From contig JBGQGY010000004.1 in assembly GCA_041497675.1 (NCBI GenBank), positions 1,938 through 65,937 on the forward strand: DNA of 64,000 nt. The letters run 5' to 3'. The notes beneath the pieces were generated by a model that did no database searches, had not been told where the DNA came from, and was given only the letters and a program-made list of their open reading frames with translations. Source of the stretch: a bacterium (lineage in GTDB: Bacteria > Sysuimicrobiota > Sysuimicrobiia > Sysuimicrobiales > Humicultoraceae). Both the position numbers and the translations under genes were made by a program. This document shows positions 1 to 21,565 of this stretch, piece by piece. Each line of letters opens with the position of its first letter. The first letter of the stretch is position 1.

Positions 1-1047
1 CGGATAGGTGATGACCCGCGCGCGGTCCAGGAGGTCGATACAAAACTGCTCCGAGGACACACCTGTCTGTCGGATATCGGCAAACACAAACAGGCTTCCC
101 CCGCTAGGGGCAAAGAGCAGTCGCGCCTCCTGCAGACCCGCCAGCAGCCAGGCGCGGCGGCGCGCGTAGATCGACACGGTTTCTTCGACGCAGTCCTGCG
201 GCCCGGCGATCGCGGCGAGGGCGGCCCACTGGTTTGGCGCGGGCGTGCAGATCGTGTACGTGTCCTTCACCGCCTGGAGCCCGGTCATCAACGGGGCCGG
301 CGCGGCCACCCAGCCGACACGCCATCCGGTCATCGAGTACGCCTTCGAGAAACCGTTCACGGTAATCGTCCGGTCACGCATGTCGGGGAACGACGAGATC
401 GAATGATGTACCGCACCATCGAAGAGGATCTTCTCGTAGATCTCATCGGAGATCACGAGCAGGTTGTGCCGCCGGGCGATGTCGGCCACCGCCTCGAGCG
501 CGTGTCGCGACTGCACGGTGGCCGTGGGGTTATTGGGTGAGACGACGGCGATCGCCTTGGTCCGGGGCGTCAGGTGCCGCTCGAGCGCCGCCGCGTCGAT
601 CTGAAACCCGCCGTCGGGGTCGAGCGGGACGTGCACCGGTGTGCCACCCGCCAGGTGTGCGGCCAGCGCGTACGTCGTGTACGTCGGGCTCGGGAGGATC
701 ACCTCGTCACCGGGGTTCAGCAGGCTCTGCATGATCACGCACAGCGCCTCCTGCCCGCCGGTCGTCACGAGGACCTCGTCCGGACCGTAGTCCACGTGGT
801 TCTCGCGCTTCAACTTGGCCGAGATCGCCTCGCGCAGGGGCACGATGCCCAGGCTGGGTGTGTAGTGCGTATGCCCGTCGCGGGCCGCGCGATGTGCGGC
901 TTCGACGATGTGGGGCGGGGTCGGCAGATCGGGGTCGCCCCGCCCCAGCGAGATCACGTCTTGATACTTCGCGGCCAGGGTCATCATGCGGTTGCGGGGG
1001 CGGGTCGCGAGAAAATTGGCCCGCGCCGAGATGGACGGATGAATCAT
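1..1047 (-). CDS. Class I/II PLP-dependent aminotransferase (aspartate/aromatic type); 3' end runs off the window
   Basis: The reverse-complement translation from the ATG at 1047 reads MIHPSISARANFLATRPRNRMMTLAAKYQDVISLGRGDPDLPTPPHI...NPTATV...NGFSKAYSMTGWRVGW. This is the fold-type I aminotransferase pattern (SKAYSMTGWR is the PLP-lysine region). There is no stop before position 1. The gene is missing from the ORF track because it is open at the window edge. Confidence 0.8.
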   Translation of the reverse strand, partial: MIHPSISARANFLATRPRNRMMTLAAKYQDVISLGRGDPDLPTPPHIVEAAHRAARDGHTHYTPSLGIVPLREAISAKLKRENHVDYGPDEVLVTTGGQEALCVIMQSLLNPGDEVILPSPTYTTYALAAHLAGGTPVHVPLDPDGGFQIDAAALERHLTPRTKAIAVVSPNNPTATVQSRHALEAVADIARRHNLLVISDEIYEKILFDGAVHHSISSFPDMRDRTITVNGFSKAYSMTGWRVGWVAAPAPLMTGLQAVKDTYTICTPAPNQWAALAAIAGPQDCVEETVSIYARRRAWLLAGLQEARLLFAPSGGSLFVFADIRQTGVSSEQFCIDLLDRARVITYP

Positions 1048-1063
1048 CTGAGCGATCTCACCT

Positions 1064-2551
1064 CTACAATCCGCGCAGCACGGGTGGTTCGTAGTCGAGC
1101 CCCAGGATTTCCTGCAGCGTCGCACCGACGGGATCCCGCTCGCGCGCGGCCCGGACTGTGCTCCGGAAGACTCCCTCCGCAGCGCGACGAAGGGCCGGCT
1201 CGTCGGCGTGGAGGACGCGCCCGGCCTCGACGGCCTTGCGGCCTTCCACCCAGACGCTGTGCACATCCTGGCCCGTCCCCGACACAAACAGCGCACGAAT
1301 GGGATCGACCACCGGACCGTAGTGATGCCGGTCGAGGTCGATGAGCACGATGTCGGCCTTCGCGCCGGCCGCCAACCGACCGAGATCATCGCGGCCCAGC
1401 GCCCGCGCGCCGCCCAACGTCGCCGCCGCGAAGATATCGTGACAGGACGGCAAGGACGGGGTGCGATCGACCGCCTTCGCCAAAAACCAGGCCAGGCGCA
1501 TCTCGGCGATGATGTCGGCTGGCCAGATGTCGCAGCCGATCGCCACGTTCACGCCGGCGGCCCGGTAGCGGCTAAACGACTGCAGCGTCTCGCCCCGACG
1601 GGCAAACGGCAGCGGCGAATGCGCGACGGACGACCCGGCATCGGCGATGAGACGAAGGTCCCGCGATGGATCGCCGCCCACGGCGACATGGCCTTGCGCG
1701 TAGATCGTGTGCCCGAGGATGATGCCGGGCCCCAGGAAGCCCAGGTTCGATAGGTGCTCGACCGGCGTGCACGCATATTGCTCCCGGATCCTGCGCACTT
1801 CGAACTCGTACTGTGCGCAGTGCACCTGAACGAGCAGGCCGTGCTCGTCGGCGGCACGTTTGGTCGCCTGCAGGAGCGCCGGGCTGCAATTGTCGACCGC
1901 GTGCGGACACAAGAGGGTCTCGGCGAATCCCCCCCTGGTGCCGCGGTGCCGCGTGGCGAACGCGACGGCGCGGCGCAGACCTTCGAAGCCGAACTCCTCA
2001 TCCCAGTGCCAATCGGCACGACCGTCGGCGTCATAGTACACGCGGCCGGACCGGTAGGAGAGCGAGGCATACACGCGCGCCCCGATACGCGCGGCGGTAT
2101 CCAGCAAGGCCACCTCGTCGCCGGGCGGGTTTCCCATCCACCAGAGGGGGCCCGACCCGGCGGCGTCCACGATCGTGGTCGCGCCGCACTTGAGCATCTG
2201 CACGAGCGAAAACTCTCCCGAGAGCCGCTGCTCCTCGGGCCCGAGCGACGGCGGCAGTTCCCGCTGGGACACGAACGTCTGCGAGGGGCTGTACCGCCCG
2301 CGCCCGGGGCTGTCCGCGGGCGCGTCGATGAACGTCGACATGATATCCACGCCGATGTGGGCGTGGGTGTTGATGAAGCCAGGCGAGACCAGCATCCCCC
2401 TCGCGTCGACCGTCTCGTCCGCCATGCCGGCCCAGCGCGGTCCCGCGTAGGTGATGCGGTCGCCCTCGAAGACGACGTCCCCCTCGGGAATGACGCGGTG
2501 ACGCCTGCCATCGAAGGCCGCGACCCAGCCGCCGCGGATCAGCGTTGCCAC
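1064..2551 (-). CDS. Amidohydrolase-superfamily metal hydrolase (cytosine-deaminase/chlorohydrolase-like; SsnA/MtaD-like)
   Basis: Inner part of ORF 1064..2797(-). Motifs read: LIRGGWVAAFDG...GFINTHAHI...VHCAQ...GHTIY...DIW. The GTG start at 2551 (VATLIRGG) was checked in the DNA. The upstream 80 aa of the ORF are R/P-rich and read as a non-coding extension. Confidence 0.75.
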   Translation of the reverse strand: MATLIRGGWVAAFDGRRHRVIPEGDVVFEGDRITYAGPRWAGMADETVDARGMLVSPGFINTHAHIGVDIMSTFIDAPADSPGRGRYSPSQTFVSQRELPPSLGPEEQRLSGEFSLVQMLKCGATTIVDAAGSGPLWWMGNPPGDEVALLDTAARIGARVYASLSYRSGRVYYDADGRADWHWDEEFGFEGLRRAVAFATRHRGTRGGFAETLLCPHAVDNCSPALLQATKRAADEHGLLVQVHCAQYEFEVRRIREQYACTPVEHLSNLGFLGPGIILGHTIYAQGHVAVGGDPSRDLRLIADAGSSVAHSPLPFARRGETLQSFSRYRAAGVNVAIGCDIWPADIIAEMRLAWFLAKAVDRTPSLPSCHDIFAAATLGGARALGRDDLGRLAAGAKADIVLIDLDRHHYGPVVDPIRALFVSGTGQDVHSVWVEGRKAVEAGRVLHADEPALRRAAEGVFRSTVRAARERDPVGATLQEILGLDYEPPVLRGL

Positions 2552-2558
2552 GGCGCGA

Positions 2559-3860
2559 TCAGGCTCCCACGACGCGACGGCCGTCGACGTAGACGGCGTG
2601 CACGCGATCGAGGCCTGGGGCAAAGACCGCGAGATCGGCCGGGCGCCCCGGCTCGAGCAGCCCGGCTTCGAAGACGCCCGGCAGCCGCCGCGCGACGTTG
2701 CCGGTTGAGAGCGCCACGGCCTGCGGCATCGACACGAGCCCTTCGCGGACGATTCCGGCCAACGGCACCGACACGGGATCGTAGTGACCGGCCGCATAGT
2801 CGGTGCCGACGACGTCGACCAGCCGCTCGCGCACGAGGGTCAGAAAGTTGGTGATGTCCTGCTTCCCCTTGGTGCGCGTGAACAGGTCGAGCCCCGAGAT
2901 TTCGAGCAACGCGCCCTTCGCGCGCAGGGCGCGCGCGTAGCGGACGGATTCTTCCTCGGTAAAGCTCGGATGGTTGCAGTGCCCCGCGATCATGCGGTCG
3001 TTTGCGACTTCGAGGACAACGTCGGCCGACGCGGCGGCGTGGTGCACGATGAACGGCCGGCGCACACGCGCCGAGGCGACCGCGGCCTCGCGCAGCCCTT
3101 CATACGCGTGGGCCATCGACGGCATCACGCATCGCTGTATCGTCTCGATGACGGCAGCCTCGTCGATCCGCCCGGTCAGACCGGCGGTGTCCATCGCACG
3201 GCGTAGTACCGCCCGGTCGAGGTTGGCCGGATCGATCGTCCGGCCCAACACGGCTTCTTTCAGCGCCCTGGCCTGGAATGGATCGATCTGCGCGCCGCAC
3301 CGCTCGCGGATGGCGTTGGGGATGTAGATGTTGTCCTGCATCCCCCCGCCCAGCGTCCCGCCGGCGCCAACCTCACCGATGACCGAGGCCCCTTGTGCCA
3401 CCAGCTCGTCGACCGTCGCCTTGCGGTGGGCGTCGGTCAAACCCTCCCCATCGGACTGCTCGGCGGCCCGGATATTGGCGGGAGTGTGCGCGGTACACTT
3501 CGTGACCTTCAATGGGTGCCGGTCGCGGAGCGCCAGATACTCGGACCACAGCGGAAACCCGTCGACCGACAACACCGACGTCGTGCCGCCGCGCAGGTGC
3601 CGCTCCTTGAAGGCGTGGACCTCGGCCTCAGTCGGGGACTTCGACCCGGTCGCGTGCGCGGGGCCCAGCGTCACGCAGTGGACGTGGATGTTGATCAATC
3701 CTGGGGTGATGACGGCGCCGGCGTAGTCCATGGTCGCACGCCCTGGGCCGCGACCGGCGCCGACCTGCGCGATCCGCGTCCCCTCAATCACGACGTAGCC
3801 CGGTTCATGGACCGTGGCGCCGTCACCGGTCACCACTGTCCCGGTCAGGACTTCGGCCAT
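2559..3860 (-). CDS. Amidohydrolase-family protein (second metal-dependent hydrolase)
   Basis: ORF 2559..3860(-) begins MAEVLTGTVVTGDG...VIEGTRIAQVG...GLINIHVHC, the typical amidohydrolase N-terminus. The ATG at 3860 is preceded by GGGAG. A 7-nt gap separates it from the downstream hydrolase. Confidence 0.7.
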   Translation of the reverse strand: MAEVLTGTVVTGDGATVHEPGYVVIEGTRIAQVGAGRGPGRATMDYAGAVITPGLINIHVHCVTLGPAHATGSKSPTEAEVHAFKERHLRGGTTSVLSVDGFPLWSEYLALRDRHPLKVTKCTAHTPANIRAAEQSDGEGLTDAHRKATVDELVAQGASVIGEVGAGGTLGGGMQDNIYIPNAIRERCGAQIDPFQARALKEAVLGRTIDPANLDRAVLRRAMDTAGLTGRIDEAAVIETIQRCVMPSMAHAYEGLREAAVASARVRRPFIVHHAAASADVVLEVANDRMIAGHCNHPSFTEEESVRYARALRAKGALLEISGLDLFTRTKGKQDITNFLTLVRERLVDVVGTDYAAGHYDPVSVPLAGIVREGLVSMPQAVALSTGNVARRLPGVFEAGLLEPGRPADLAVFAPGLDRVHAVYVDGRRVVGA

Positions 3861-3880
3861 TGGCGCTCCCTGCCTCAGAT

Positions 3881-4597
3881 TCAGCGGGCTGTGACGCGCT
3901 GGTCCACGCGATCGCTCGCGGCCGCCAGCGCGGCCAGGACCTCATCGGTGGTTTTGATCTTGGCGAACACCTCGTTGAGCACCCGCAGGGAGAACTCGTG
4001 CATGTCGTGGGTCCAGGTGCCGCAGGCGTCGTCCACGACGAGCACCCGGTAGCCCAGATCCTTCGCGTCGCGGGCCGCGCTCTCGACGCACCCACCGGTC
4101 ATCACGCCGACCATGATCAGGTTCCGGATGCCCACGTTTTGGAGGGCATAGTGGATCGTGGTCGAGTTGAAGACGCTGCCGGTGGTCTTGTCGAAGACCA
4201 TCTCGTCCCCGACCGGCGCCAGGTCTGCCAGGATCTCGGCTTCCTTCGCGCCCGGGGGGAACATGTGGCCCAGTTCCTTGTGCGCCAGGCTCCGGTCGCG
4301 GCCGTCACGCGTCAACGAACGGATGCGTGTAAAGACGACCTCAACCCCACACGCGCGGCACGCGTCTTGCAGTCGGCGGATATTGGGGACAATCAGGTCC
4401 ATCCGCCGCTCCATGTAGTCGAGCCCGTTGGTGTACCCGTGGTCGCGGCGGTGTTTGAAGATGCCATAGTCTTTGTGGGCGTCGGCGTATTGCATGTCGA
4501 TGACGAGCAGCGCCGTGTCCTGACGGCGGAGCAGCGGGTCGGTCAGGCGAGGCCGCCAGCCGATGTACGGATCGTCGCGCGAAATCGGTGTCGTCAT
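3881..4597 (-). CDS. Isochorismatase-family cysteine hydrolase (RutB/PncA-like)
   Basis: ALLVIDMQYADAH...VFTRIRSL...DKTTGSVFNST...LIMVGVMTGGCVESAARDA reads as an isochorismatase fold with the catalytic Cys in GGCVES. The ATG at 4597 (MTTPISRDD) has GGGGAGGA 4 nt upstream, verified in the DNA. Confidence 0.8.
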   Translation of the reverse strand: MTTPISRDDPYIGWRPRLTDPLLRRQDTALLVIDMQYADAHKDYGIFKHRRDHGYTNGLDYMERRMDLIVPNIRRLQDACRACGVEVVFTRIRSLTRDGRDRSLAHKELGHMFPPGAKEAEILADLAPVGDEMVFDKTTGSVFNSTTIHYALQNVGIRNLIMVGVMTGGCVESAARDAKDLGYRVLVVDDACGTWTHDMHEFSLRVLNEVFAKIKTTDEVLAALAAASDRVDQRVTAR

Positions 4598-4762
4598 GTC
4601 CTCCCCAGTAATCGCCTCGTCGCCGGCGGCCACCCGTCAGGAGGATTCACCGGCGGTTGACACGAAACGCGACTTACCCACGAGTCAGTTCCGCCTTCGC
4701 GCGAAAGGAGTCGTTTCCTGCCGACCGCCATACTACGAACGAACCGCGACAACCTTGTCCGG

Positions 4763-5593
4763 ATGGCCGTTGCGGGCATCATCGCGCCCCCGACGTTGAC
4801 GCGCGGCGGCCCGCATCGCGTCACGGCCCGCGGCGAGGCGTTCGTGCCTATCGGCATGGCCGGCATCGTCTACAACGCGCGCCCGGGCTGCCCGGCGTTT
4901 GGCTGGGCCGCCGATCACCTCGAGCCCGCCGTGTGCGTAGACGCTCCAGACACCCAGGAGCATCATGCGCTGCACTACCTGACCAACCTGGGCAATGACG
5001 CGGTGGTCATCTCGGGAGAGGCGAAGGGCGCGCGGGGGATCGTCATGGGCGAGCACGCCCGATTCATCGTCGATTTCGCCCCGGCCGACATGGATCGGAT
5101 GTGCCCGGGTGACCGCGTGCAGATCGCGGCGTGGGGGACGGGGCTACGGCTGCTCGACTATCCCCAGGTCTCTGTGTGGAAGCTCGACCCGCGGCTGCTC
5201 GACCGCATGGGGATCGAGGAGGCCGGGGGCGCGCTGCGCGTGCCCGTCACGCACATCGTGCCGTCGCGGATCATGGGCTCGGGCTGGGAGCTGAACCCCG
5301 AGTACGTCGACCAGGACATTTGCTCGAACGACCCGGCGACGGTCGCGGAGTTCGGGCTCGAACGGCTGCGCATCGGCGACGTGATCGCCATCAGCGACGC
5401 GGATCATTCGACGGGGCGCGCCTACCGTAAGGGCGGGGTGACCATCGGCGTGATCCCCCACGGCAACTCGTGGATGCTGGGCCACGGACCGGGGTGTGTG
5501 ACGGTGCTGTCGTGTCCGACGCCACAGCTGCAACCCGTCGTCGATCCCGGCGCAAACATCGCGCGCTACATGGGCTGCGGAGCCTTCGCGTGA
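4763..5593 (+). CDS. DUF4438-like protein (uncharacterised; family assignment tentative), copy 1
   Basis: ORF 4763..5593(+). Conserved blocks shared with the next gene: GIVYNxRxGxxAFGWxA(D/E)HxEP, LxxLGNDxxVISGEAKGARG, GVxIGVxPxG. The amino-acid composition is realistic for a real protein. Confidence 0.6.
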   Translation: MAVAGIIAPPTLTRGGPHRVTARGEAFVPIGMAGIVYNARPGCPAFGWAADHLEPAVCVDAPDTQEHHALHYLTNLGNDAVVISGEAKGARGIVMGEHARFIVDFAPADMDRMCPGDRVQIAAWGTGLRLLDYPQVSVWKLDPRLLDRMGIEEAGGALRVPVTHIVPSRIMGSGWELNPEYVDQDICSNDPATVAEFGLERLRIGDVIAISDADHSTGRAYRKGGVTIGVIPHGNSWMLGHGPGCVTVLSCPTPQLQPVVDPGANIARYMGCGAFA

Positions 5594-6465
5594 TGGTGGC
5601 CACGAACGCCGATCGTCTGATCGCGATCTCCGTGGCGGGCGACATCGTCGCGCCGCGGATGCCGGGGCTTCCGGCGACGCCCCACATCATCTCCAGGACG
5701 GGGCACCCGATCATCGTGCCGCCGCTGGGCGGCATCGTCTACAACGTCCGCGTGGGCGACGCGGCCTTTGGCTGGGTGGCTGAAAACGTGCACCCGGGTG
5801 TCTCGATCAAGAACCGCGAAGACGGCGCGCACGTGGCCCTGCACACGCTGGCCTGCGTCGGGAACGACGTCATCGTCATGTCGGGTGATGCCAAGGGAGC
5901 GCGCGGCACGGTCACGGGCAAGAGCGGGCGGTGGTCCGAACACGTCATCGTTCATTTCCCGGCGAGCGCCCTCGAGCGTCTGACGATCGGGGATCGCCTC
6001 GTGGTGAAGGCGATGGGTGTCGGTCTGGCCTTCGCTATAGTCCCACAGGTGACGGCCAAGAACCTCTCCCCACGTCTGGTGGACGCCTGGGGGATCGAGC
6101 AGCGGGGCGAGATGCTCGACGCGCCGGTCGTGGCGGTGGTGCCGCCCGAACTGATGGGGGCCGGGAGCGGGCTGTCCAGCGACGGGGGCGTGCTCGATAT
6201 CCAAACGGGCGACGCGGCACTGCTCAAGGCGCGAGGCCTGGCGGATCTGCGGTTGGGCGATCTCGTGGCCTTCCAGGATTGTGACGCGACGTTCAACTCC
6301 GGATACCACAAGGGCGCGGTGAGCGTCGGCGTGGTCGCCCAGGGCGACTCGTATCGGGCGGGATTCGGCCCAGGTGTGACGATCCTGTTGACGTCGCGGG
6401 AGGGCGCTATCCGTCCTGTCGTGCGTCCGGGCGTCAACATCGCGGCATTGCTGCGGCTCTCGTGA
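5592..6465 (+). CDS. DUF4438-like protein, copy 2 (tandem paralog)
   Basis: Starts at ATG 5592, overlapping the TGA of copy 1 (TGATG). It carries the same blocks: GIVYNVRVGDAAFGWVAENVHPG, LACVGNDVIVMSGDAKGARG, GAVSVGVVAQGDSYRAGFGPG. Confidence 0.6.
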
Positions 6466-6493
6466 GCGCGTCGCCGCGGGTCGGGGTGCGCGC

Positions 6494-7873
6494 GTGATCG
6501 CCGACCTCGTCATCCGCGGAGGCACGCTCGTGACCGGCGATGGCGAGCGCCGCGGAGCGCTGGCGATCAGCGGCGGGCGCATTGCGGCCGTCGACCGCGA
6601 CGACGCGATGCCCGAGGCCCGCGAAACCATCGACGCCTCCGGCCGGCACGTCCTCCCCGGAGTCATCGACACCCACGTGCACCTGCGCGATCCGGGCAAG
6701 GTCGAGCGTGAGGACTGGCTCACCGGCACGCAGGCCGCGGCCGCGGGCGGCATTACGACCATCCTCGAGATGCCCCTGGCGATCCCGCCGGTGCATTCGG
6801 CCGCAATCTTGAAAGAGCGGGCGGCCCACGTCCAACCGCGGTCGATCGTCGATTTCGCCCTCTATGCCGGCGCAAACGGCGACATCCTCGACGAGATCGA
6901 GCCGATGGCGTCGGCGGGCGCCATCGCGTTCAAGACGTTCCGCACCCGGCCGCCCAAAGGGCGCGAGCCGGAGTTCGTGGGCATCACCTGCCCCGACGCT
7001 GGGCAGATGCTGCTCACCATGCAACGCACGGCGCCGACGGGTCTGCTGCACGTGGTGCACGCCGAGGACCAGCAGATCCTCGACGTGACCGAGGCGCAGG
7101 CGCGCGCCACCGGCCGGCACGACGGCAAGGTGCACGCACTGTCGCGGCCGGAAGTCGTCGAAACAGCCTCGGTGGCGCAGTGTATTGCGCTGGCCGAAGC
7201 CACGGGCGCCAGGCTGCAGATCGCGCACATGAGCGCCGCCGCGGCCCTGGATCTGGTGGCCCGCGCGAAAGCCGATGGGCTCAAGGTGACGGCGGAGACC
7301 TGTCCCCACTACCTTTTGTTCACCGAAGAGGCGCTCGCCCGGTGGGGCCCCTACGCGAAGTGCAACCCGCCGCTGCGTCCGCTCGAATCGCAACAGCGGT
7401 TGTGGGAGGCGGTGCGGTCGGGAGTCATTGATGTCATCGGGACCGACCATTCGCCTTACACCGACAAAGAGAAAGCCGACTATGTCGACAACATCTGGGA
7501 TGCGCGGGCCGGGGTTCCCGCGTTGGAAGAGTTCGTTCCGCTGATGCTCACCGCGGTGTCACGCGGGCATCTCGGCCTGCCGCTGATGACGCGCCTGATG
7601 AGCGAGAACCCCGCGCGCGTGTTTGGGTTGTGGCCGCGCAAAGGGGCCTTCGCGGTCGGGAGCGACGCGGACGTCGCGATTGTCGATACCCGGGTCGAGC
7701 GCGTGCACGATCACCGTACCCTCTACACGAAGTCCCGGGATACGGCACTCATGTACGACGGCATGCGCATGCAGGGTGCGCCCGTCATGACCATCGTGAG
7801 AGGGAAGATCGTCATGCGCGACGGCCGGGTGACGGGTGAGGCCGGGTGGGGACAGTGGGTGCGGCCGAGCTGA
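6494..7873 (+). CDS. Cyclic amidohydrolase (dihydropyrimidinase / hydantoinase / allantoinase / dihydroorotase family)
   Basis: IRGGTLVT...ISGGRIAAV...VLPGVIDTHVHLRDPG...AFKTF...HAED...GTDHSPY...VGSDADV. These are the metal-binding HxH, the carboxylated-Lys context and the DHSP motif of this family. Confidence 0.85.
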   Translation: MIADLVIRGGTLVTGDGERRGALAISGGRIAAVDRDDAMPEARETIDASGRHVLPGVIDTHVHLRDPGKVEREDWLTGTQAAAAGGITTILEMPLAIPPVHSAAILKERAAHVQPRSIVDFALYAGANGDILDEIEPMASAGAIAFKTFRTRPPKGREPEFVGITCPDAGQMLLTMQRTAPTGLLHVVHAEDQQILDVTEAQARATGRHDGKVHALSRPEVVETASVAQCIALAEATGARLQIAHMSAAAALDLVARAKADGLKVTAETCPHYLLFTEEALARWGPYAKCNPPLRPLESQQRLWEAVRSGVIDVIGTDHSPYTDKEKADYVDNIWDARAGVPALEEFVPLMLTAVSRGHLGLPLMTRLMSENPARVFGLWPRKGAFAVGSDADVAIVDTRVERVHDHRTLYTKSRDTALMYDGMRMQGAPVMTIVRGKIVMRDGRVTGEAGWGQWVRPS

Positions 7874-7889
7874 CGGCCGGGAGGGCATC

Positions 7890-8345
7890 ATGATCAGGGG
7901 CATCAAGCACATCGCGATCGCCGTCCGAGATGTCGACGTGGCGCTCCGCCGGTACCAGGCCGTCCTCGGGGTGTCCGAGGTGAAGCGGCACTCGTTTGAC
8001 AAGGCGCGAAGCCACGAGGCGCACTTCATGCTGGGGGACGTGCAGATTCAGTTGTGCCAGTCGTGGGACGCGGACGGCCGCTTCGCGCGCTACCTCGCCG
8101 ATCACGGCGAGGAGGGCGTCCACCACGTCTGCTACACGGTGGACAACATCGAGCGATCCCTCGCCGACGCCACGACGAAGGGCGCGACCCTGAAACCCTG
8201 CGCGGCATGCAAGATCGTGGGCCCGCACAAGCACTCGGAAGGCTGGGTCGCCTTTCTCGAAGACACGCTCACGGGGATGGAAACGGAGTTCATGCAGGTC
8301 TACAAGGCGGGTGAAGGACCAGATGTCGGTCCCCGCACCGTCTAG
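7890..8345 (+). CDS. VOC/glyoxalase-family protein (methylmalonyl-CoA-epimerase-like fold)
   Basis: MIRGIKHIAIAVRDVDVALRRYQAVLG...HHVCYTVDNIERS reads as a VOC beta-alpha-beta-beta-beta module. It is the last gene of the plus-strand operon. Confidence 0.7.
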   Translation: MIRGIKHIAIAVRDVDVALRRYQAVLGVSEVKRHSFDKARSHEAHFMLGDVQIQLCQSWDADGRFARYLADHGEEGVHHVCYTVDNIERSLADATTKGATLKPCAACKIVGPHKHSEGWVAFLEDTLTGMETEFMQVYKAGEGPDVGPRTV

Positions 8346-8348
8346 ACA

Positions 8349-9461
8349 TCACTCCAGTTTCTTTTGGAACCGCGCCACGCTGTAGGCGAAGAAGACCGCG
8401 CCGAGCAGCACCATGGGGATGATCTGATCCCACAGATATGACAGACCCACGCCCTTGAGGATCATCCCGCGGACGATCTGCAAAAAGTAGGTGATCGGAA
8501 GCGCATAACCCAACCACTGCAGGAAGTCGGGCATCCCCTCGCGGGGAAACATGAAGCCCGAGATGATGAAGGTCGGCAGCAGCACGAAGAACGACGCCTG
8601 CATCGCCTGCCGCTGGGTCTTTGAGATGGTCGAGATCAGAATCCCCATGCCGAGGCTCGAGAAGTAGAAGAACAACGTGACGAAATAGAGCATCGCGATG
8701 CTCCCGCGAATCGGCACCTGGAACCAGTACGCGGCCACGAGCAACGCGAGCGTGACATCTACGTAGCCGACGAGCACATACGGCAGGATCTTGCCCAGCA
8801 TCAACTCGCCGCGGCGGATCGGCGTGACGACGAGCTGTTCGATGGTGCCCAGCTCGCGCTCGCGGACGATCGCAATGGCGATCAGGCTGAGGGTGATGTT
8901 CTGCAGCACGACCGCCAGCAGGCCCGGCACCATGAAGTTGGTGCTGCTGAGGTCGGGATTGTACCAGGCCCGCGTGCGGACCTCCAGCGGCACCTGCACG
9001 CCGCCGAGCAGCCGCCCGACGATCTCCAGCGACGTCACCTGCCCGATTGATTCCGCCGCGCTCAGCGCGCTGCGTGCCACCAGGGGATCGGACGCGTCGA
9101 CGATCACCATGGCCCGCGCCGGGAGACCCCGCCGCAGCCGTACCGCGTAGTCGGGTCCGATCATCACGATCACGCGCGCTCTACCCCGCTGTACCTGTTC
9201 TTCGGCAATCTGCAGGCTGTCGGTGTTCGCGCGGAGCGTGAAGAAGCGGCTGGCAGAAAACCGGTCGAGCAGCGCGCGGCTCTCCTGTGTCCTGGAGTGA
9301 TCGACCACGATGGTCGGCAGGTGCTCGACCTCGGTGGTGATCGCATAGCCGAAGAGCAGCAGCTGGATGATGGGCAACATGATGGCCATCATCAGGGTGC
9401 GCCGGTCTCGCGTCAGCTGGATGAACTCTTTGATGATGATCGCGGTCAGACGCCTACGCAT
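8349..9461 (-). CDS. ABC-2 family transporter permease
   Basis: ORF 8349..9623(-) from the internal Met at 9461: MRRRLTAIIIKEFIQLTRDRRTLMMAIMLPIIQLLLFGYAI. Six predicted TM segments and the ABC-2 signature follow. It overlaps the upstream ATPase gene by 8 nt. Confidence 0.8.
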   Translation of the reverse strand: MRRRLTAIIIKEFIQLTRDRRTLMMAIMLPIIQLLLFGYAITTEVEHLPTIVVDHSRTQESRALLDRFSASRFFTLRANTDSLQIAEEQVQRGRARVIVMIGPDYAVRLRRGLPARAMVIVDASDPLVARSALSAAESIGQVTSLEIVGRLLGGVQVPLEVRTRAWYNPDLSSTNFMVPGLLAVVLQNITLSLIAIAIVRERELGTIEQLVVTPIRRGELMLGKILPYVLVGYVDVTLALLVAAYWFQVPIRGSIAMLYFVTLFFYFSSLGMGILISTISKTQRQAMQASFFVLLPTFIISGFMFPREGMPDFLQWLGYALPITYFLQIVRGMILKGVGLSYLWDQIIPMVLLGAVFFAYSVARFQKKLE

Positions 9462-10383
9462 GGTCCACCAGGGCGACAAAGACGTCTTCCAACGTCGGCA
9501 TGATGGGTGCGATGCGCCGAACATGCACGCCGGCGGCGTCGAGATCGGCGCGGAGCGCCGCGGTGGCCGCGGTGGGGTCGCGCACGAGCGCGTGGATGGC
9601 GGTGCCGTAGAGCGCCGCGGCACTCACCAGCGGTGATGCCTGCACGACGTCCAGGGCCGGCATCCATTCATCGGCCTGCACCTCGAGCAACTGCCCGGGC
9701 ATGTGGCGCTGCTTGATCTCCGACGGCGCCCCTTCCGCGACGATCCGGCCCCCGTGGATGAAGGCGAGCCGGTCGCAGTGCTCCGCCTCGTCCATGTAGT
9801 GCGTCGTGACCATGACGGTGGTGCCCTCATCCGCAAATCGATAGATGAGATCCCAAAATTCGCGTCGGGACTGCGGATCGACGCCGGAGGTCGGCTCGTC
9901 GAGCAGCAGCAACTCCGGGCGGTGCATGATCGCGCACCCAAGCGCCAGACGCTGCCGCCATCCGCCGGACAGCGTGGACACCAGATCCCGTTCGCGGCCG
10001 GCAAGACCCGCGGTCTCGATCCACCCCTCCACTTTCCGGCGACGCGTCGCGTCATCGAGCCCATACACCCGGGCGTAAAAGTCGAGCTGCTCGGTCACGC
10101 TCAAGTCGGCGTAGAGACTCGACCGCTGGCTCATGTAGCCAATGCGCGACTTCAAGTCCTCGGCCTGACGGCGCACGTCAAGGCCCAGGACCTCTGCCTC
10201 ACCCTCGGAAGGATCCATGATCCCGCACAGCATCCGGATCGTCGTCGACTTGCCCGCGCCGTTGGGTCCGAGAAAGCCGAAGACCTCGCCGCGGCGGATC
10301 TCGAGATCGACGTGATCCACGGCCACCAGGTCTCCGAATCGCTTGGTCAACCCGCGTGCGATCACCGCGGCGTCAGGCGGCAT
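9454..10383 (-). CDS. ABC transporter ATP-binding protein (second ATPase of the efflux pump)
   Basis: Walker A GPNGAGKST, signature LSGGWRQRL, Walker B LLLLDEPTSGVD, H-loop TTHYM. The ATG at 10383 was verified. Confidence 0.9.
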   Translation of the reverse strand: MPPDAAVIARGLTKRFGDLVAVDHVDLEIRRGEVFGFLGPNGAGKSTTIRMLCGIMDPSEGEAEVLGLDVRRQAEDLKSRIGYMSQRSSLYADLSVTEQLDFYARVYGLDDATRRRKVEGWIETAGLAGRERDLVSTLSGGWRQRLALGCAIMHRPELLLLDEPTSGVDPQSRREFWDLIYRFADEGTTVMVTTHYMDEAEHCDRLAFIHGGRIVAEGAPSEIKQRHMPGQLLEVQADEWMPALDVVQASPLVSAAALYGTAIHALVRDPTAATAALRADLDAAGVHVRRIAPIMPTLEDVFVALVDHA

Positions 10384-11335
10384 GCTGATCCTCCGGGGGC
10401 GCGCCTGACGACGCCATCAGCGTAATGAAGACGTCCTCCAGTGACGGCGGGGTGACGCGAATCGAGCGCACCTCAACCCCCGCGCGCTCCATGGCCGCCC
10501 GGACCACCGGCTCGGCCGCCGCGGCATCGATCACGGACAGGTGCAGCGTGTCACCAAAGACGCTGCCGGTCCGCACGATGTCGAGGCCACGCACGGCCGC
10601 CAGCGCCCGCCGGCGCGGCTCGGCCGCGACCTCGAGCACGTGACCGGTGGTGCGCGCCTTCATCTCCACGGGGGTGGCAACCGAGAGCAGCCGGCCCCCA
10701 AAGATGAAACCGATCCGCGTGCAGCGGTCGGCTTCATCCATGTACGGCGTGGCGATCAGCACGGTGGTGCCCCGCCGGTTCAAGTCATACAGGATGGCCC
10801 AGAACTCGCGCCGCGAGACGGGATCCACACCGGTGGTCGGCTCATCGAGCAGCAGCATACCCGGTTCGTGGATCATGGTGCACGCGAGTGCCAGTTTCTG
10901 CCTCATCCCGCCCGACAGGTGCTCGGCCAGATGCTGCTGGAACGGACCCAGCCGGCTGAAGGCCAGCAGACGTTCAAACCGGCCCGGTATTTCCCGCGGC
11001 GGGACCTGGTATGCCTCCGCAAAAAACCGGAGGTTTTCCGTGACGGTCAGGTCGCGGTACAGCGAGAATGCCTGCGGCATGTAGCCGATCCGCTGGCGGA
11101 GCAGCTCGGGTTCGGTGCGGACATTCGCGCCCGCGACCGTGGCCGACCCTTCGTCGGCATCGAGCACGCCGGCGAGGATGCGAAGCAGCGTCGTCTTGCC
11201 GGCGCCGTCTGGGCCGACAAGCCCGAACACCTCGCCCGGCCGCACGTCGAACGACACGCCGTCAATCGCCGCCACACGGCCGAAGCGACGCCGCAGCGAG
11301 TCTACCGTGATGCCGTGCGGCGGGATCACGGTCAT
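10373..11335 (-). CDS. ABC transporter ATP-binding protein (first ATPase of the efflux pump)
   Basis: Walker A GPDGAGKTT, signature LSGGMRQKL, Walker B LLLDEPTTGVD. The ATG at 11335 was verified. The stop overlaps the next ATPase. Confidence 0.9.
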   Translation of the reverse strand: MTVIPPHGITVDSLRRRFGRVAAIDGVSFDVRPGEVFGLVGPDGAGKTTLLRILAGVLDADEGSATVAGANVRTEPELLRQRIGYMPQAFSLYRDLTVTENLRFFAEAYQVPPREIPGRFERLLAFSRLGPFQQHLAEHLSGGMRQKLALACTMIHEPGMLLLDEPTTGVDPVSRREFWAILYDLNRRGTTVLIATPYMDEADRCTRIGFIFGGRLLSVATPVEMKARTTGHVLEVAAEPRRRALAAVRGLDIVRTGSVFGDTLHLSVIDAAAAEPVVRAAMERAGVEVRSIRVTPPSLEDVFITLMASSGAPPEDQHAA

Positions 11336-11338
11336 AGA

Positions 11339-12652
11339 TCAGGGCGTCCCGGTGTGGATCCGCGCGTCGGCAGGCATGCCGGGCTTGAGCAGGCCGTCTT
11401 TGTTGTCGAGGGTCACGCGCACGGCAAACACGAGCTTCACGCGCTCCTGTTTGGTCTGCACGTTGCGCGGCGTGAACTCGGCCTGGTTGGCGATTTCGGT
11501 GACGCTCCCGTCAAACGGGCGGTCGGGGAAGGCGTCGACAAACACCTCTCCGCGCTGTCCGACCTTCACCTTGCCCAGCCCTTTTTCGGGGACGAAGATG
11601 CGCAGCCACACCGTGCGGACTTCGCCCAGGGTGAGCAGGGACGTGCCTGCCCCAACCACCTCGCCCGGTTCGATGTTGCGGGAGAGCACGACGCCGTCGA
11701 TGGGCGATGTCAACGTCGCGTTGGCCCGCAGCGCCTGCACATATCTCAGAGTCGCATCGGCCTGTACGAGCGTGGCCTGGGCCGCCGCGACGTCCTGCTC
11801 GCGCTGCGCGACAAGATCGTTCGCGCCGCGGGCCCCCGCGGCCGCGGCCTTTGCCTGCGCCTGCTGCGCCTGCGCGACCGAGACATCCTGGCGACGGATC
11901 GTGACCTGCGCCTGGCTCGCGAACACCTGACCCAGGACGGCACGCGCCTGCTCGACCTGGCGAGCGGCGGCGGTTTCTTGAGCGGCGGCGGCCCTTTCCT
12001 GTGCGGCCAGCACCTCGACCGCGGCCCGAGCCGCTTCGGCCGTCTGCGCCGACACGGCGCCGTCCCGATAGAGCAGGTTGGCCCGCGCCAGGTCGTCTTC
12101 GGCGCGCTTGAGGCCGGCCCTGACCGCGGCCCGGTTGGCGGCCGCCGCGGCCTGCGCCGCTTCGGCCGTGGCCACCGCGGCGCGTGCCTGAGCGACCTGC
12201 TGCTCCCACTGCTGCTCGGTGAGCGTCACGGCGACATTGGCCTGGGGCACGCGAACCTCGGCCGCGCGCTGGGCCGCATCGGCCTGCTCGATCGTGGCGA
12301 CCGCCTGTCTGCGCTGCGCGCGCAAGGCCGCGTCGGCCTGCGCCACGCGCACGCGTGCTGCGGTGACCGCCGCTTCAGCCTGCGCGATCTGCGCGTCGAG
12401 CTCATCTGTATCGAGGCGTATCAGGACCTGTCCGGCAGCGACGTTGTTACCTGACTCCACCAGGACCTGCTTCACGCGCCCGGGGATCTTGGCGGCAATC
12501 TGCACCTCTGTCGCCTCGATCGTCCCGGACCCGTCGATGAAGGGCCCGTTGGCAGCGCGCTCCTGCCGCACCCTGGAAATGGCATACGCGGCGAGCGCCA
12601 GGACGATCACGATTCCGACGATCGGGACTCGCCGCCGGCGTGGGGTCGCCAT
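11339..12652 (-). CDS. HlyD-family membrane-fusion (periplasmic adaptor) protein
   Basis: MATPRRRRVPIVGIVIVLALAAY is a single TM anchor. A long Ala/Gln-rich coiled coil follows, then a beta-barrel/lipoyl region (EVFVDAFPDRPFDGSVTEI...PGMPADARI). The ATG at 12652 was verified. Confidence 0.85.
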   Translation of the reverse strand: MATPRRRRVPIVGIVIVLALAAYAISRVRQERAANGPFIDGSGTIEATEVQIAAKIPGRVKQVLVESGNNVAAGQVLIRLDTDELDAQIAQAEAAVTAARVRVAQADAALRAQRRQAVATIEQADAAQRAAEVRVPQANVAVTLTEQQWEQQVAQARAAVATAEAAQAAAAANRAAVRAGLKRAEDDLARANLLYRDGAVSAQTAEAARAAVEVLAAQERAAAAQETAAARQVEQARAVLGQVFASQAQVTIRRQDVSVAQAQQAQAKAAAAGARGANDLVAQREQDVAAAQATLVQADATLRYVQALRANATLTSPIDGVVLSRNIEPGEVVGAGTSLLTLGEVRTVWLRIFVPEKGLGKVKVGQRGEVFVDAFPDRPFDGSVTEIANQAEFTPRNVQTKQERVKLVFAVRVTLDNKDGLLKPGMPADARIHTGTP

Positions 12653-12653
12653 G

Positions 12654-14033
12654 CTACTCCACCGGTCCTCCCGCCGCGCGTTCGAGTTGCGCGCGGGCGA
12701 CATTGACATTGAAGAGCGCCTGAATGCGATTGCCCGCCGCCTGCGACTGCGCGGCCTGGGCCAGGATGACTTCTAGGTTGGTGGAGACCCCCGCCGCGAA
12801 GCGGACGTTGGCGATCCGCAATCCTTCCTCCGCCTGTTCGACCGTCTTGTCGGCGGTCACGAGCTCCTCGGCGGCCGATCCATAGGTCAGCAGCGCCCGG
12901 CGGATGTCGAGCTCGACCGCCTGCCGCAACTGCGCTTCACCGACCCGTAGCTGCTCAACGCGTAGTTCGGCTTCGCGGACACGTTGCGTCGTCACGCCGC
13001 CGTCGAACAGGGGGACGGTCGCCGCCAGCGTGACGCTCCACCCCGCAGTCGCCGAACCCGTGGATGTCCCACCGACGCTGTTGCCATAGTTTGGCCCACC
13101 GGAGAACACCAGCGCGGGCCGACCTCCGGATTTCGCGACCTCGATGGCCGCCGTCGCGGCCTCGAGACGCGCGCGCAGCTCCGAGAGCTCCGGTCGCGCC
13201 TCGAGCGCCCGGCGAATCAGGGCCGCGGTGTCGCCGCGCACCGTGACCATCGTCATCGTTTCGCGCGGGGCGAGCGCCGTATCCAACGGGAGGTTCGCGA
13301 CGGCGTTGAGCCCGTGCTGGGCCAGCGCCTGCGCGTTCCTCGACCGGATCAACCCCTGACGCGCGTTGGCGAAGTTCACCTCGGCCTGGATCTCGTCAAA
13401 CCGGGGAGATACACCGGCGGTCACCCGCGCCCTGGCCACGCGCAGGTTCTCCTCGGCCGCCGCCACAGTGCGCTGCGCGACGTCCATGCTGGCCTGCGCC
13501 AGCAGCAACTGGAAGTAGGCCTGCTTCACGTCGAGCACGAGTTGCTGCTTTACGCGTTCCAAGGCGGCGTCGGCCCCCTTGAGATTGGCCTTGGCCAGCG
13601 CGATCTGTGACTCGATGCGGCCACCGGTCAGCAGCGGGACCTGATAGGTCAGCGCGGTGGAAAACAGATCGGAGCTCGGTGGCGACAGCGTGATTGTCAA
13701 CGGCGCGGGTATGATTGGCGGCGTGGCCGGAATCGTGATCGTTGAGCCGGCCCGATCGTTGATCCGCGTGTACGAGCCCGTCAACACCACCGTGCCAGAT
13801 CGGAAGCCCTCGGCCTGGGCGAGTTGGGCGCGCGCGACCTGGCTCTCGAAGGCGGCGATCTTCAAGGTCAGGTTGTTTTGTGCGGCGAGCGCCAGCGCTT
13901 CAGACAGCGTGATCGTTCGGGGCGCCGGGGCGGCCGGTGGCGTCTGCGCCGCGGCCTGGGGAGGCGCCGCGCCGGTCACCAACGCCACCGCGCAGCAGCC
14001 GGCCAGGAATCGGATCAGTGATCGTGTGCTCAC
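12654..14033 (-). CDS. TolC-family outer-membrane efflux channel
   Basis: GTG start at 14033 (verified). A signal peptide (LAGCCAVALVTGAAPPQAAAQ) is followed by two repeats of the TolC coiled-coil/beta-barrel module (LSEALALAAQNNLTLK...). Confidence 0.85.
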   Translation of the reverse strand: MSTRSLIRFLAGCCAVALVTGAAPPQAAAQTPPAAPAPRTITLSEALALAAQNNLTLKIAAFESQVARAQLAQAEGFRSGTVVLTGSYTRINDRAGSTITIPATPPIIPAPLTITLSPPSSDLFSTALTYQVPLLTGGRIESQIALAKANLKGADAALERVKQQLVLDVKQAYFQLLLAQASMDVAQRTVAAAEENLRVARARVTAGVSPRFDEIQAEVNFANARQGLIRSRNAQALAQHGLNAVANLPLDTALAPRETMTMVTVRGDTAALIRRALEARPELSELRARLEAATAAIEVAKSGGRPALVFSGGPNYGNSVGGTSTGSATAGWSVTLAATVPLFDGGVTTQRVREAELRVEQLRVGEAQLRQAVELDIRRALLTYGSAAEELVTADKTVEQAEEGLRIANVRFAAGVSTNLEVILAQAAQSQAAGNRIQALFNVNVARAQLERAAGGPVE

Positions 14034-14050
14034 GTGTGCCTCCGCCGTGA

Positions 14051-14695
14051 TCAGACTGGCACCCGGTGGTTGAGGGCGCCGTGAAGAAATTGCCTGACAG
14101 CCTCACGCACGAACGTGCGGTACATGGACGGGGTCATCCGCCTGCCCAACAAGACCCGCTGGCTCAGCGTAACCATGAAGATCATGGCGGGGAACGCGCG
14201 CCCGGCCACCGCGGGGTCGAGGTCCCGCCGGTACACGCCACGGGCCATCCCTTTTCGTAGATGCGCCTCGAGCATCCCGGCGGTCGCCATCGGCATCAGC
14301 CGCATGTACTCTTCGCGCGCGCGCTGGCTGAGATGGGGTAGCGCCGAGAGAAAGACCTTCACAAACCGGACGTTGCCGCTCACCCGCTCGACCATCGCCT
14401 CGCCCATGGCAATCAGGGCGCGCTCGGCCGCCTCGGCCGTGTCGACTTCGGGGAGCGCCGCGAGCTGCTCGAGCACCGGCCCGGCGATATGCCTCGGAAT
14501 GTGGATCAGCAGGTCTTCTTTGCTGCGGAAGTAGTTGTAGATCGTGCCTTCAGCGACATGGGCGGCGCGGGCAACGTTTTCGATCGTCGCGGTCGCGTAG
14601 CCGCGGTCGGCGAACACGCGCGCAGCGGCCCGCAGGATCTGCCTGCGGCGCTCGGCGCTGTGTGTTCGGCGGTCGTGCGCGGGCAGGCGTGGCAT
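14051..14695 (-). CDS. TetR/AcrR-family transcriptional regulator
   Basis: The helix-turn-helix ATIENVARAAHVAEGTIYNYFRSKEDLL is the TetR_N signature. The start is taken at MPRLPAHDRR (14695). It sits immediately upstream of the efflux operon. Confidence 0.85.
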   Translation of the reverse strand: MPRLPAHDRRTHSAERRRQILRAAARVFADRGYATATIENVARAAHVAEGTIYNYFRSKEDLLIHIPRHIAGPVLEQLAALPEVDTAEAAERALIAMGEAMVERVSGNVRFVKVFLSALPHLSQRAREEYMRLMPMATAGMLEAHLRKGMARGVYRRDLDPAVAGRAFPAMIFMVTLSQRVLLGRRMTPSMYRTFVREAVRQFLHGALNHRVPV

Positions 14696-14714
14696 CGGAG
14701 TCGGTGCGCCAATT

Positions 14715-14760
14715 AATGAGTGGGTGCTCACTCCAAGAAATGAGTGAGTGCTCACTCATT
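14715..14760. promoter_or_regulatory. Tandem palindromic operator pair upstream of the TetR gene (putative TetR binding sites)
   Basis: 14738-14760 is AAATGAGTGAG-tg-CTCACTCATT, a perfect 10-bp inverted repeat with a 2-bp spacer. 14715-14733 is an imperfect copy, AATGAGTGGG-tg-CTCACTC. Both lie 20-65 bp upstream of the TetR start codon. Confidence 0.5.
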
Positions 14761-16263: not shown

Positions 16264-16264
16264 C

Positions 16265-21557: not shown

Positions 21558-21565
21558 GGCGCGGT

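Follow-up and report, generated by a model that had tools for sequence, protein, structure and literature searches.

What does a tandem pair of DUF4438 proteins contribute to a cluster of hydrolase genes? The window, by which we mean the whole 64,000-nucleotide stretch of DNA analysed, carries two divergent, tightly packed operons at positions 1-8345. The minus-strand operon encodes a class I/II aminotransferase, two amidohydrolases (AH1 and AH2), and an isochorismatase-family cysteine hydrolase; the plus-strand operon encodes DUF4438-A, DUF4438-B, an L-hydantoinase-like cyclic amidohydrolase, and a VOC protein. The original prediction described a regulator-less ring-opening amidohydrolase cluster built around the two paralogs and serving N-heterocycle degradation. 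Open reading frames at the predicted positions and Pfam matches agree with its back-to-back operons and its gene mix.

Layout of the divergent operons

1-1047, minus strand: class I/II PLP aminotransferase (PF00155, E 1e-66), C-terminus beyond the window start
1064-~2551, minus strand: amidohydrolase AH1 (NF004801, "chlorohydrolase family protein", 441 bits, cut-off 416)
2559-3860, minus strand: divergent amidohydrolase AH2 (weak PF01979 match, 35.8 bits)
3881-4633, minus strand: isochorismatase-family cysteine hydrolase (PF00857, E 5e-36), first gene of its operon
4690-4722, strand not given: conserved intergenic block, candidate operator, CGCCTTCGCGCGAAAGG...CGTTTCCTGCC with palindrome TTCGCGCGAA
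4763-5593, plus strand: DUF4438-A (PF14505, E 8e-41; PF20999, E 6e-42)
5593-6465, plus strand: DUF4438-B (PF14505, E 3e-45; PF20999, E 4e-37)
6494-7873, plus strand: cyclic amidohydrolase of the hydantoinase/allantoinase/dihydroorotase family (TIGR03178, 390 bits; TIGR00857, 310 bits)
Open reading frame from 7836, likely start 7890, to 8345, plus strand: small single-domain VOC protein (PF13669, E 3e-16), last gene of its operon

Spacings of 7-28 nt within both operons fit co-transcription of each. The window edge truncates the left, minus-strand operon, leaving the aminotransferase as its last visible gene; in the related locus L016, 92% identical to the window at the DNA level, genes for a Gfo/Idh/MocA oxidoreductase and for an SBP_bac_5 binding protein come next. 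AH1 likely starts at a GTG ~7 nt after the AH2 stop, and length comparison with relatives makes ATG 4597 the more likely start of the isochorismatase-family gene. The conserved N-terminus of A is encoded from position 4730, where the ancestral start codon, ATG or GTG in relatives, is ATA in the window. The TGATG coupling of A and B had been recognized correctly, with TGA at 5591-5593 and ATG at 5593-5595, an overlap of one base; B therefore starts at 5593 and not at 5592, as had been given, and the frame from 5592 runs into stop codons on translation.

The DUF4438 pair and its relatives

We define DUF4438 membership as PF14505 followed by PF20999, both above the gathering score (24.9 and 27 bits), in a protein of ~280-300 residues. 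A scores 139 and 143 bits and B 154 and 127 bits, well above these cut-offs and as anticipated for PF14505, and both share the fold of TM1086. The description of the two neighbors as clearly homologous is borne out by 39% full-length identity (BLASTP E 2e-63). Two of the sequence blocks ascribed to the pair, GIVYNxRxGxxAFGWxAxxxxP and GNDxxVxSGxAKGARG, are present in both proteins; the third, GVxxGVxxxG, is exact in A (GVTIGVIPHG) but only approximate in B (AVSVGVVAQG). Membership of a characterized enzyme family with known substrate, which would have undone the prediction of a new component, did not emerge: the only structural relative is TM1086, and a search on DUF4438, PF14505, PF20999, and TM1086 returned nothing functional within the literature library used, its only relevant match being a crystallization note.

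TM1086 of Thermotoga maritima (3DCL, 3N99), by which structural genomics represents the family, has the same two Pfam domains as A and B. It is encoded by a single-copy gene and is presumably homo-oligomeric, whereas the window carries an ancient A/B duplication inside catabolic operons. Other single-copy TM1086-type genes stand in unrelated housekeeping contexts in Thermotoga, Caloranaerobacter, and Zhenhengia, where no common metabolic partner was seen; in Thermotoga sp. KOL6 the gene adjoins one for a rhomboid protease. DUF4438 chemistry is thus not tied to the present pathway.

Conservation separates the two members of the pair. Eight polar residues (H52, E54, H98, S173, D183, D185, H233, and H241) are 100% conserved in 83 A and 60 TM1086-type sequences, which share them across ~40% identity, and Gly172-Ser173 forms an invariant pair, at which self-cleavage as in pyruvoyl enzymes would be conceivable. 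All eight positions are replaced in the 81 B sequences, which have conserved His and Cys residues of their own, so B may still bind something. B is conserved like A (mean Kimura distance 0.61 versus 0.55), and neighbor-joining bootstraps recover A, B, and the TM1086 type as monophyletic in 30/30, 30/30, and 29/30 replicates. A representative search also found one natural 636-residue protein (P0242) in which a B-like module is fused to an A-like module; two further candidate fusions, P0243 and P0306, were rejected as apparent frameshift artefacts. The constant, ordered A-B pair in clusters for nitrogen-compound breakdown suggests that A and B are probably distinct subunits of a two-subunit protein. 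This heteromeric arrangement is well supported, if indirectly, by universal adjacency and order, coupling, complementary residue loss, and the natural fusion.

The pair may alternatively have no enzymatic activity and form a large pentamer-based scaffold, cage, or ligand-binding particle that organizes or protects the pathway enzymes. TM1086 crystals contain 5 or 30 chains per asymmetric unit, amounting to >1 MDa (PMC2661377), which indicates that the fold oligomerizes. The fold consists entirely of beta-barrels resembling oligomerization crown domains, and we found no relationship to a catalytic family. However, eight invariant His, Glu, Asp, and Ser residues are what one would expect at an active or metal site, no cargo signal or cargo gene is recognizable, and members of this small family are always encoded in operons with enzymes. 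We therefore consider a purely structural particle very doubtful.

Neighbourhood of the pair across genomes

A precedes B in 86 of the 86 loci in which both genes were detected; in the four loci with no detected B (L003, L004, L013, and L016) the sequence ends within or just after A. The tblastn matches of the two genes mostly lie 6-72 nt apart. The pair is spread over at least five bacterial phyla, with carriers among Chloroflexota, Armatimonadota, Ca. Sysuimicrobiota, Trueperaceae, Alphaproteobacteria, and Acidobacteriaceae, and at least two records, Tropicimonas sp. IMCC34043 and Microvirga arvi BT689, appear to be cultured isolates. The gene set and arrangement of the window recur in its closest relatives (L009/L010, L014, and L016), AH2 orthologues being 75-78% identical and in the same position in L009 and L014. 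Large variation of peripheral genes between loci is what chance juxtaposition would produce, but the pair and its core partners recur in several phyla and the full arrangement is found in L009, L014, and L016. Such conservation, the check called for by the original prediction, refutes an accidental grouping, to which we give almost no credence.

Across 58 loci with full flanks (10 kb for the cyclic amidohydrolase), a Chloroflexota-dominated set whose members are not phylogenetically independent, the partners are an aminotransferase (83%), VOC (79%), SBP_bac_5 (72%), Ldh_2 (72%), GntR (64%), the cyclic amidohydrolase (50%), a 2-hydroxyacid dehydrogenase (40%), AstE/AspA (28%), an isochorismatase-family gene (12%), and AH1 (7%). 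Ring opening, around which the cluster was said to be built, is thus represented in only half of these loci, well behind the aminotransferases and VOC. With VOC, Ldh_2, aminotransferases, a peptide-type ABC transporter, and GntR as its constant partners, the A-B pair stands at the centre of a modular catabolic island and is not a ring-opening accessory.

Gene order illustrates this modularity. An amidohydrolase and an M20 gene directly follow B in L009, L011, and L014, with the VOC gene next in L009 and L011, whereas VOC directly follows B in L007; comparison of these orders suggests a module inserted between B and VOC. At 371 bits (cut-off 204), TIGR01879 identifies the M20 protein of L009 as a hydantoinase/carbamoylase-family amidase. 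In the window, a tblastn search with M20 finds no such gene, only 16 nt separate the amidohydrolase stop at 7873 from the VOC start at 7890, and there is no Ldh_2 gene.

A dedicated accessory subunit or activator of ring opening, in a pyrimidine, hydantoin, or purine pathway, would explain why the cyclic amidohydrolase directly follows B in the window, L009, L011, and L014, and the other hydrolases of the window suit heterocycle or ureide chemistry. Yet half of the full loci lack the enzyme within 10 kb, it stands directly after B in only 1/58 of them as against 31/58 for VOC, and the close relatives L001 and L007 (A 77-79% identical) keep the pair without it. Nor is any cyclic amidohydrolase of this family known to require partner subunits, which counts against such a role. 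On balance we judge it distinctly improbable.

Peptidases of the M14, M20, M24, and M32 families recur in related loci, as do sugar-type enzymes (Gfo/Idh/MocA, SDR, DegT, and NAD-epimerase). The latter hint at glycated or opine-like substrates, outside the scheme proposed below.

Catabolic context and proposed role of the pair

The enzymes of the window resemble several known systems. The aminotransferase, whose full-length orthologue in L016 has 385 residues, falls below every NCBIfam equivalog cut-off. AH1 belongs, by its sequence, to the deaminase/chlorohydrolase branch of the amidohydrolases; it retains the HxH, H, H, and D metal-ligand motifs, and among solved structures it comes closest to 8-oxoguanine and MTA deaminases and triazine hydrolases. 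AH2 yields end-on matches only, to many amidohydrolase models of NCBIfam. Neither Pfam nor NCBIfam placed any of these eight proteins in the AtzD/barbiturase family, to which the name "ring-opening amidohydrolase" usually refers.

The isochorismatase-family protein shares its fold family with the ureido-amide cysteine hydrolases, which are among its nearest named solved relatives. Closest of all are 6XIX and 6XJ4, deposited simply as "cysteine hydrolase"; the N-carbamoylsarcosine amidase 1NBA, the "putative amidase" 6AZO, and the biuret hydrolase 6XJM come after them. Segments consistent with the Asp/Lys/Cys triad of the family can be read by eye. It nonetheless lies far below the equivalog cut-offs for BiuH (66.2 bits versus 370) and RutB (TIGR03614, 64.5 bits versus 377.95), which speaks against its description as RutB-like, and no other Rut components were detected.

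The cyclic amidohydrolase retains, in its DTHVH, AFKTF, HAED, AHMS, and GTDHSP motifs, all the metal ligands by which we recognize a hyu-type enzyme (HxH, carbamylated Lys, His, His, and Asp). Its specificity is ambiguous, as it passes both the allantoinase model (TIGR03178, 390.3 bits against 357.85) and the dihydroorotase model (TIGR00857, 310 against 279), whereas its best solved relative is the L-hydantoinase 1GKR (292 bits, with ≤230 for others). The comparable hyu system of Arthrobacter aurescens comprises HyuH (1GKR), the carbamoylase HyuC, and the racemase HyuA; a racemase and an M20 carbamoylase accompany this L-hydantoinase in its native operon. Relatives of the window have a hydantoinase/carbamoylase-family M20 amidase right after the cyclic amidohydrolase. 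The window differs from hyu in having no M20 carbamoylase, Asp/Glu-type racemase, or hydantoin permease, and in its additional deaminase-type amidohydrolase, AH2, cysteine hydrolase, and DUF4438 pair.

Could the pair, perhaps with VOC, supply the racemase or epimerase, either replacing a missing hydantoin/N-carbamoyl-amino-acid racemase or epimerizing the released amino acid? The kinship of the amidohydrolase to 1GKR, the order A-B-hydantoinase-carbamoylase-VOC in relatives, and the resemblance of the VOC protein to methylmalonyl-CoA epimerase (TIGR03081, 69 bits, below the cut-off of 115) are compatible with this idea, and the Asp/Glu/hydantoin racemase family is absent among the window proteins (Pfam) and the annotated related loci. 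Against it, the pair occurs just as often where no hydantoinase is present, the DUF4438 fold has nothing more than a generic barrel in common with known racemases, and single-copy relatives occur in non-metabolic contexts. A racemase function accordingly seems improbable.

Two further pathways offer partial parallels. In the allantoin pathway (AllB, the M20 enzyme AllC, and the Ldh_2 enzyme AllD), the window's amidohydrolase passes the AllB model, and related islands carry AllC-like M20 and Ldh_2 genes that the window does not. Those M20 and Ldh_2 proteins fail the AllC (267 bits versus 598) and AllD (154-169 versus 496) cut-offs, the latter being closer to type-2 malate or sulfolactate dehydrogenases; no ureidoglycine/ureidoglycolate enzymes were detected, and allantoate amidohydrolase is absent from the window. 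We also rejected Ldh_2 as a Pyr2C/Pip2C reductase of the hydroxyproline or D-lysine route, DpkA being only the twelfth-best PDB match, after the type-2 malate/sulfolactate dehydrogenases. With ectoine degradation (Doe/Eut), related islands share aminotransferases and M24 and AstE/AspA proteins whose best or only NCBIfam matches include DoeA (M24) and DoeB (AstE family). Their scores are far below the cut-offs (103 versus 403 bits and 43 versus 575 bits), the aminotransferases are class I/II and not class III, and M24 and AstE/AspA genes are absent from the window. An N-heterocycle or ureide route, as originally suggested, is reasonable for the window's own hydrolases (AH1, the isochorismatase-family protein, and the cyclic amidohydrolase), but across phyla the ring opener is present in only 50% of loci.

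Our preferred explanation, held at a little under even confidence, is that A and B supply the two kinds of subunit in a single hetero-oligomer with the TM1086 (DUF4438) fold, which would form the unvarying core of a modular, widely distributed island for the catabolism of small nitrogenous compounds. We infer the complex, the identity of its catalytic subunit, the order of steps, and the substrate from the genes, families, conservation, residues, and neighbourhoods described above. Small nitrogenous organics would be imported by a peptide/opine-type (SBP_bac_5) ABC transporter. A would be the catalytic subunit, probably metal-assisted, because it keeps the putative ancestral polar site of eight residues that is invariant in the TM1086 type too; B, in which all eight positions are remodelled in a conserved way, would serve a structural or regulatory purpose or act with altered specificity. 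Different lineages would plug in different hydrolases to free an amino-acid-level intermediate from N-blocked or cyclized precursors. In the window these would be the deaminase-type amidohydrolase, the second amidohydrolase, the ureido-amide-type cysteine hydrolase, and the L-hydantoinase-like ring opener, a set that could take a cyclic ureide, amidine, or hydantoin to an amino acid by way of an N-carbamoyl compound. A/B and VOC may then carry out a cofactor-independent step (isomerization, elimination, or hydrolysis) on the released intermediate, and the class I/II aminotransferase would turn the product into a 2-oxo acid.

A bolder version, possible but on the unlikely side, would make A/B a new two-subunit metalloenzyme with a fold unrelated to characterized enzymes, pairing an active subunit with a remodelled pseudo-subunit, maybe in pentamer-based particles. 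It would act as a new type of epimerase, C-N lyase, or amidase and supply a missing common step by which Chloroflexota, marine Alphaproteobacteria, and other aerobic heterotrophs break down N-blocked, cyclized, or conjugated amino acids. For DUF4438, a crystal structure has been available since 2008-2010 but no function, and the ancient A/B pair with its complementary residue pattern and reproducible partner genes now makes it a defined, testable target. An enzymatic function for the pair would bring a new fold into amide or amino-acid catabolism and help to annotate several hundred sequence families; a scaffold alone would be of limited interest.

The dedicated binding protein and the GntR regulator could be screened for their ligand. 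As the operon continues beyond the window, GntR occurs in 64% of related loci, and a palindromic block is conserved between the operons, the description of the cluster as regulator-less is not established. A riboswitch or leader RNA in place of the missing regulator was considered and rejected: the divergent intergenic region has no Rfam match and no significant RNA structure (fold z-score -1.0, weak consensus structure), and a DNA operator is the more likely role for the block. The block at 4690-4722 is kept in the window, L016, L014, and partly L009, while the flanking intergenic DNA diverges.

Organization of the operons and identity of the pair

The feature under study consists of two divergent, tightly packed operons at positions 1-8345 of the window, in a region of ~68% G+C.

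Genes of the feature under study and the adjoining efflux operon (window coordinates)
1-1047, minus: class I/II aminotransferase, running off the window
1064-~2551, minus: AH1, deaminase/chlorohydrolase-type amidohydrolase (NF004801, 441 bits against a cut-off of 416)
2559-3860, minus: AH2, divergent amidohydrolase
3881-4633, probable start 4597, minus: isochorismatase-family cysteine hydrolase, nearest the divergent promoter region (PF00857, E 5e-36)
4763-5593, plus: DUF4438-A (A)
5593-6465, plus: DUF4438-B (B)
6494-7873, plus: cyclic amidohydrolase
7890-8345, plus: small VOC protein
8349-14755, convergent: separate efflux operon (ABC-2 permease, two ABC ATPases, HlyD-family adaptor, TolC-like outer-membrane protein, TetR)

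In L016, a contig from a metagenome-assembled genome that is 92% identical to the window at the DNA level, the minus-strand operon goes on past the window edge with genes for a Gfo/Idh/MocA oxidoreductase and for an SBP_bac_5 substrate-binding protein. The closest named relatives carry the labels Armatimonadota and Candidatus Fervidifonticultor (phylum Ca. Sysuimicrobiota).

A and B both score well over the cut-offs for PF14505 and PF20999, are 39% identical over their full length (E 2e-63) and join at a TGATG. The original prediction of two homologous, DUF4438-like, overlapping genes is borne out in these respects, as are the shared sequence blocks that it quoted; the start of B moves from 5592 to 5593, since reading from 5592 gives stop codons. 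The start of A is less straightforward. Relatives begin ~11 codons further upstream, with M-L-R-T-N, and the ancestral start codon, at window 4730, is ATA here, ATG in the related loci L016 and L012, and GTG in L014 and L009. The frame from 4730 still codes for the conserved N-terminus ILRTNRDNLVR, and the first canonical start is the ATG at 4763. Translation may thus begin at the ATA or at an upstream CTG (4718), or the protein may be 11 residues shorter.

DUF4438 is a small family, contributing 665 clusters (50% identity) to a set of 1.84 billion representatives, and NCBIfam holds no model for A or B. Their sole solved relative is TM1086 of Thermotoga maritima (3DCL, 3N99), a structure without an assigned function. 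The literature searched makes no mention of DUF4438, and the single paper in it that names TM1086 deals with crystallisation methods, giving >1 MDa per asymmetric unit for the native crystals (PMC2661377).

Conservation of the pair and divergence of its polar site

A scan of one genome per species identified 552 relatives, from which the best 80 loci were kept along with 11 from exact-protein look-ups; the window's proteins and 16 neighbour families were then searched against these loci by tblastn. Wherever both genes were detected (86/86 loci), B comes after A on the same strand, and the four loci where B went undetected (L003, L004, L013, L016) all end within or just past A. The loci belong in the majority to Chloroflexota, and further to Armatimonadota, Ca. 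Sysuimicrobiota, Trueperaceae, Acidobacteriaceae and Alphaproteobacteria (Microvirga arvi BT689, Tropicimonas sp. IMCC34043, Rhodobacteraceae, Alsobacter). The pair and its arrangement thus recur in relatives, and the pair is real; the original prediction withstands both of the conditions set for refuting it, a hit to a characterised enzyme family with known substrate and a neighbourhood not conserved in related genomes. When 83 A, 81 B and 60 TM1086-type (single-copy) sequences are aligned together, A, B and the TM1086 type each form a monophyletic group (30/30, 30/30 and 29/30 neighbour-joining bootstraps, respectively), and B is as conserved as A.

Eight polar positions (H52, E54, H98, S173, D183, D185, H233 and H241, A numbering) are 100% conserved in A and in the TM1086 type. 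The corresponding residues in B are C/N, H, S, A, S, H, Q and Y/F, mostly conserved replacements. What all three groups have in common is mainly glycines, together with Y37, N38, W48, N78, D117, D206, D214 and N265. From this alignment pattern, we read A as probably retaining an ancestral site for catalysis or metal binding, which B would carry in remodelled form.

The same division appears within P0242, a metagenomic protein of 636 aa (L095:865-2775) in which a signal peptide is followed by a B-like module and then an A/TM1086-like module; the polar site is gone in the former and intact in the latter. As a fusion, P0242 is a single Rosetta-stone case for physical association of A and B, and a heteromer of the two has good indirect support. 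P0242 also suggests an extracytoplasmic version of the pair and hints that its chemistry may do without cytoplasmic cofactors.

Gene neighbourhood and proposed pathway

We interpret the A/B pair as the constant centre of a modular catabolic island, in which the surrounding hydrolases differ by lineage. The window's full arrangement was found again in L009/L010 and L014, with proteins 72-79% identical. These loci add an octopine-dehydrogenase family gene, a DegT-family aminotransferase and, between the cyclic amidohydrolase and VOC genes, a hydantoinase/carbamoylase-family M20 amidase (in L009, TIGR01879 at 371 bits against a cut-off of 204); L009/L010, unlike L014, also have DAO-family and Ldh_2 genes downstream. 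The window's own locus has neither an M20 nor an Ldh_2 gene.

Families near the pair in the 58 loci that extend 7 kb or more to either side (percentages, family probes; counts, clustering of the remaining neighbour genes; the last two entries are given by locus)
Aminotransferase: 83%, two or more copies in 38 loci
VOC: 79%, directly after B in 31 loci
SBP_bac_5: 72%
Ldh_2: 72%
GntR: 64%
Cyclic amidohydrolase: 50%
2-Hydroxyacid dehydrogenase: 40%
AstE/AspA deacylase: 28%
Isochorismatase family: 12%
AH1: 7%
Gfo/Idh/MocA: 22/58
SDR: 19/58
M20 peptidase: 16/58
M14 carboxypeptidase: 10/58
NAD-dependent epimerase: 10/58
Luciferase-like monooxygenase: 9/58
M24 peptidase: 8/58
M32 carboxypeptidase: L091
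Second conserved unknown protein, ~460-480 aa: at least 17 loci, including L091:16402-17832 and L057:1969-3354

The original prediction envisaged a ring-opening cluster built around the pair. In partial agreement with it, the window's plug-in hydrolases fit a heterocycle or ureide, and judged by their homologies they would form a coherent set for a cyclic ureide, amidine or hydantoin substrate: AH1 falls in the amino-heterocycle deaminase branch; the nearest named solved relatives of the cysteine hydrolase include N-carbamoylsarcosine amidase and a biuret hydrolase; and the cyclic amidohydrolase, its metal ligands all in place, has an L-hydantoinase as its closest solved relative and scores above the allantoinase cut-off. 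It is not the ring opener that accompanies the pair constantly, however, but VOC, Ldh_2, aminotransferases and a peptide-type transporter. Given these partners, we propose that A/B, with VOC, would act at the amino-acid or 2-oxo/2-hydroxy-acid level. The varied hydrolases would share one role, each freeing a product at the level of an amino acid from a precursor that is N-blocked, cyclised or peptidic. For the A/B step itself, our preferred chemistry is an isomerisation, elimination or hydrolysis that is metal-assisted and independent of cofactors. The locus should be better labelled a 'DUF4438-A/B core island with lineage-specific heterocycle or ureide hydrolase module', and the pair is a solid lead for enzyme discovery, if not yet a surprising result.

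Assignment of the Ldh_2 proteins as DpkA or AllD is not supported, as they are closer to type-2 malate or sulfolactate dehydrogenases. Sugar-type enzymes (Gfo/Idh/MocA, SDR, NAD-dependent epimerase, DegT aminotransferases) occur near the pair across L001-L091 and, with the octopine-dehydrogenase-family and DAO-family genes, may point, for some lineages, to substrates of an opine-like or glycated amino-acid type. The second conserved protein often adjoins the cyclic amidohydrolase and is absent from the window; two representatives are 37% identical, and the one searched had no Pfam, NCBIfam or PDB match. Single-copy TM1086-type genes of Thermotoga and Clostridia (L092, L093, L094) lie in unrelated contexts and not in catabolic clusters, beside a rhomboid protease, an Rce1-like CPBP membrane protease or an unknown 547-aa gene.

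Regulation and flanking DNA

No transcription factor gene lies inside 1-8345, the nearest being the TetR of the efflux operon. The cluster had been described as regulator-less, a description we do not uphold because the window edge truncates the minus-strand operon, a GntR gene occurs with the pair in 64% of loci, and a conserved block lies between the divergent operons. This block (4690-4722; CGCCTTCGCGCGAAAGG...CGTTTCCTGCC, with the 10-bp palindrome TTCGCGCGAA) is retained by L016 and L014 and in part by L009, amid sequence that otherwise diverges. Neither an Rfam match nor a significant RNA structure was found in the divergent intergenic region, so that the simplest reading is a candidate DNA operator whose regulator would be encoded elsewhere.

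The efflux operon at 8349-14755 takes the place held by the DAO and Ldh_2 genes in L009. Further along, 15427-22558 carries purR, ispE, ksgA and a 330-aa ORF, a putative 3D/G5-domain protein, in a Bacillota-like gene order that fits a Terrabacteria lineage such as Ca. Sysuimicrobiota.
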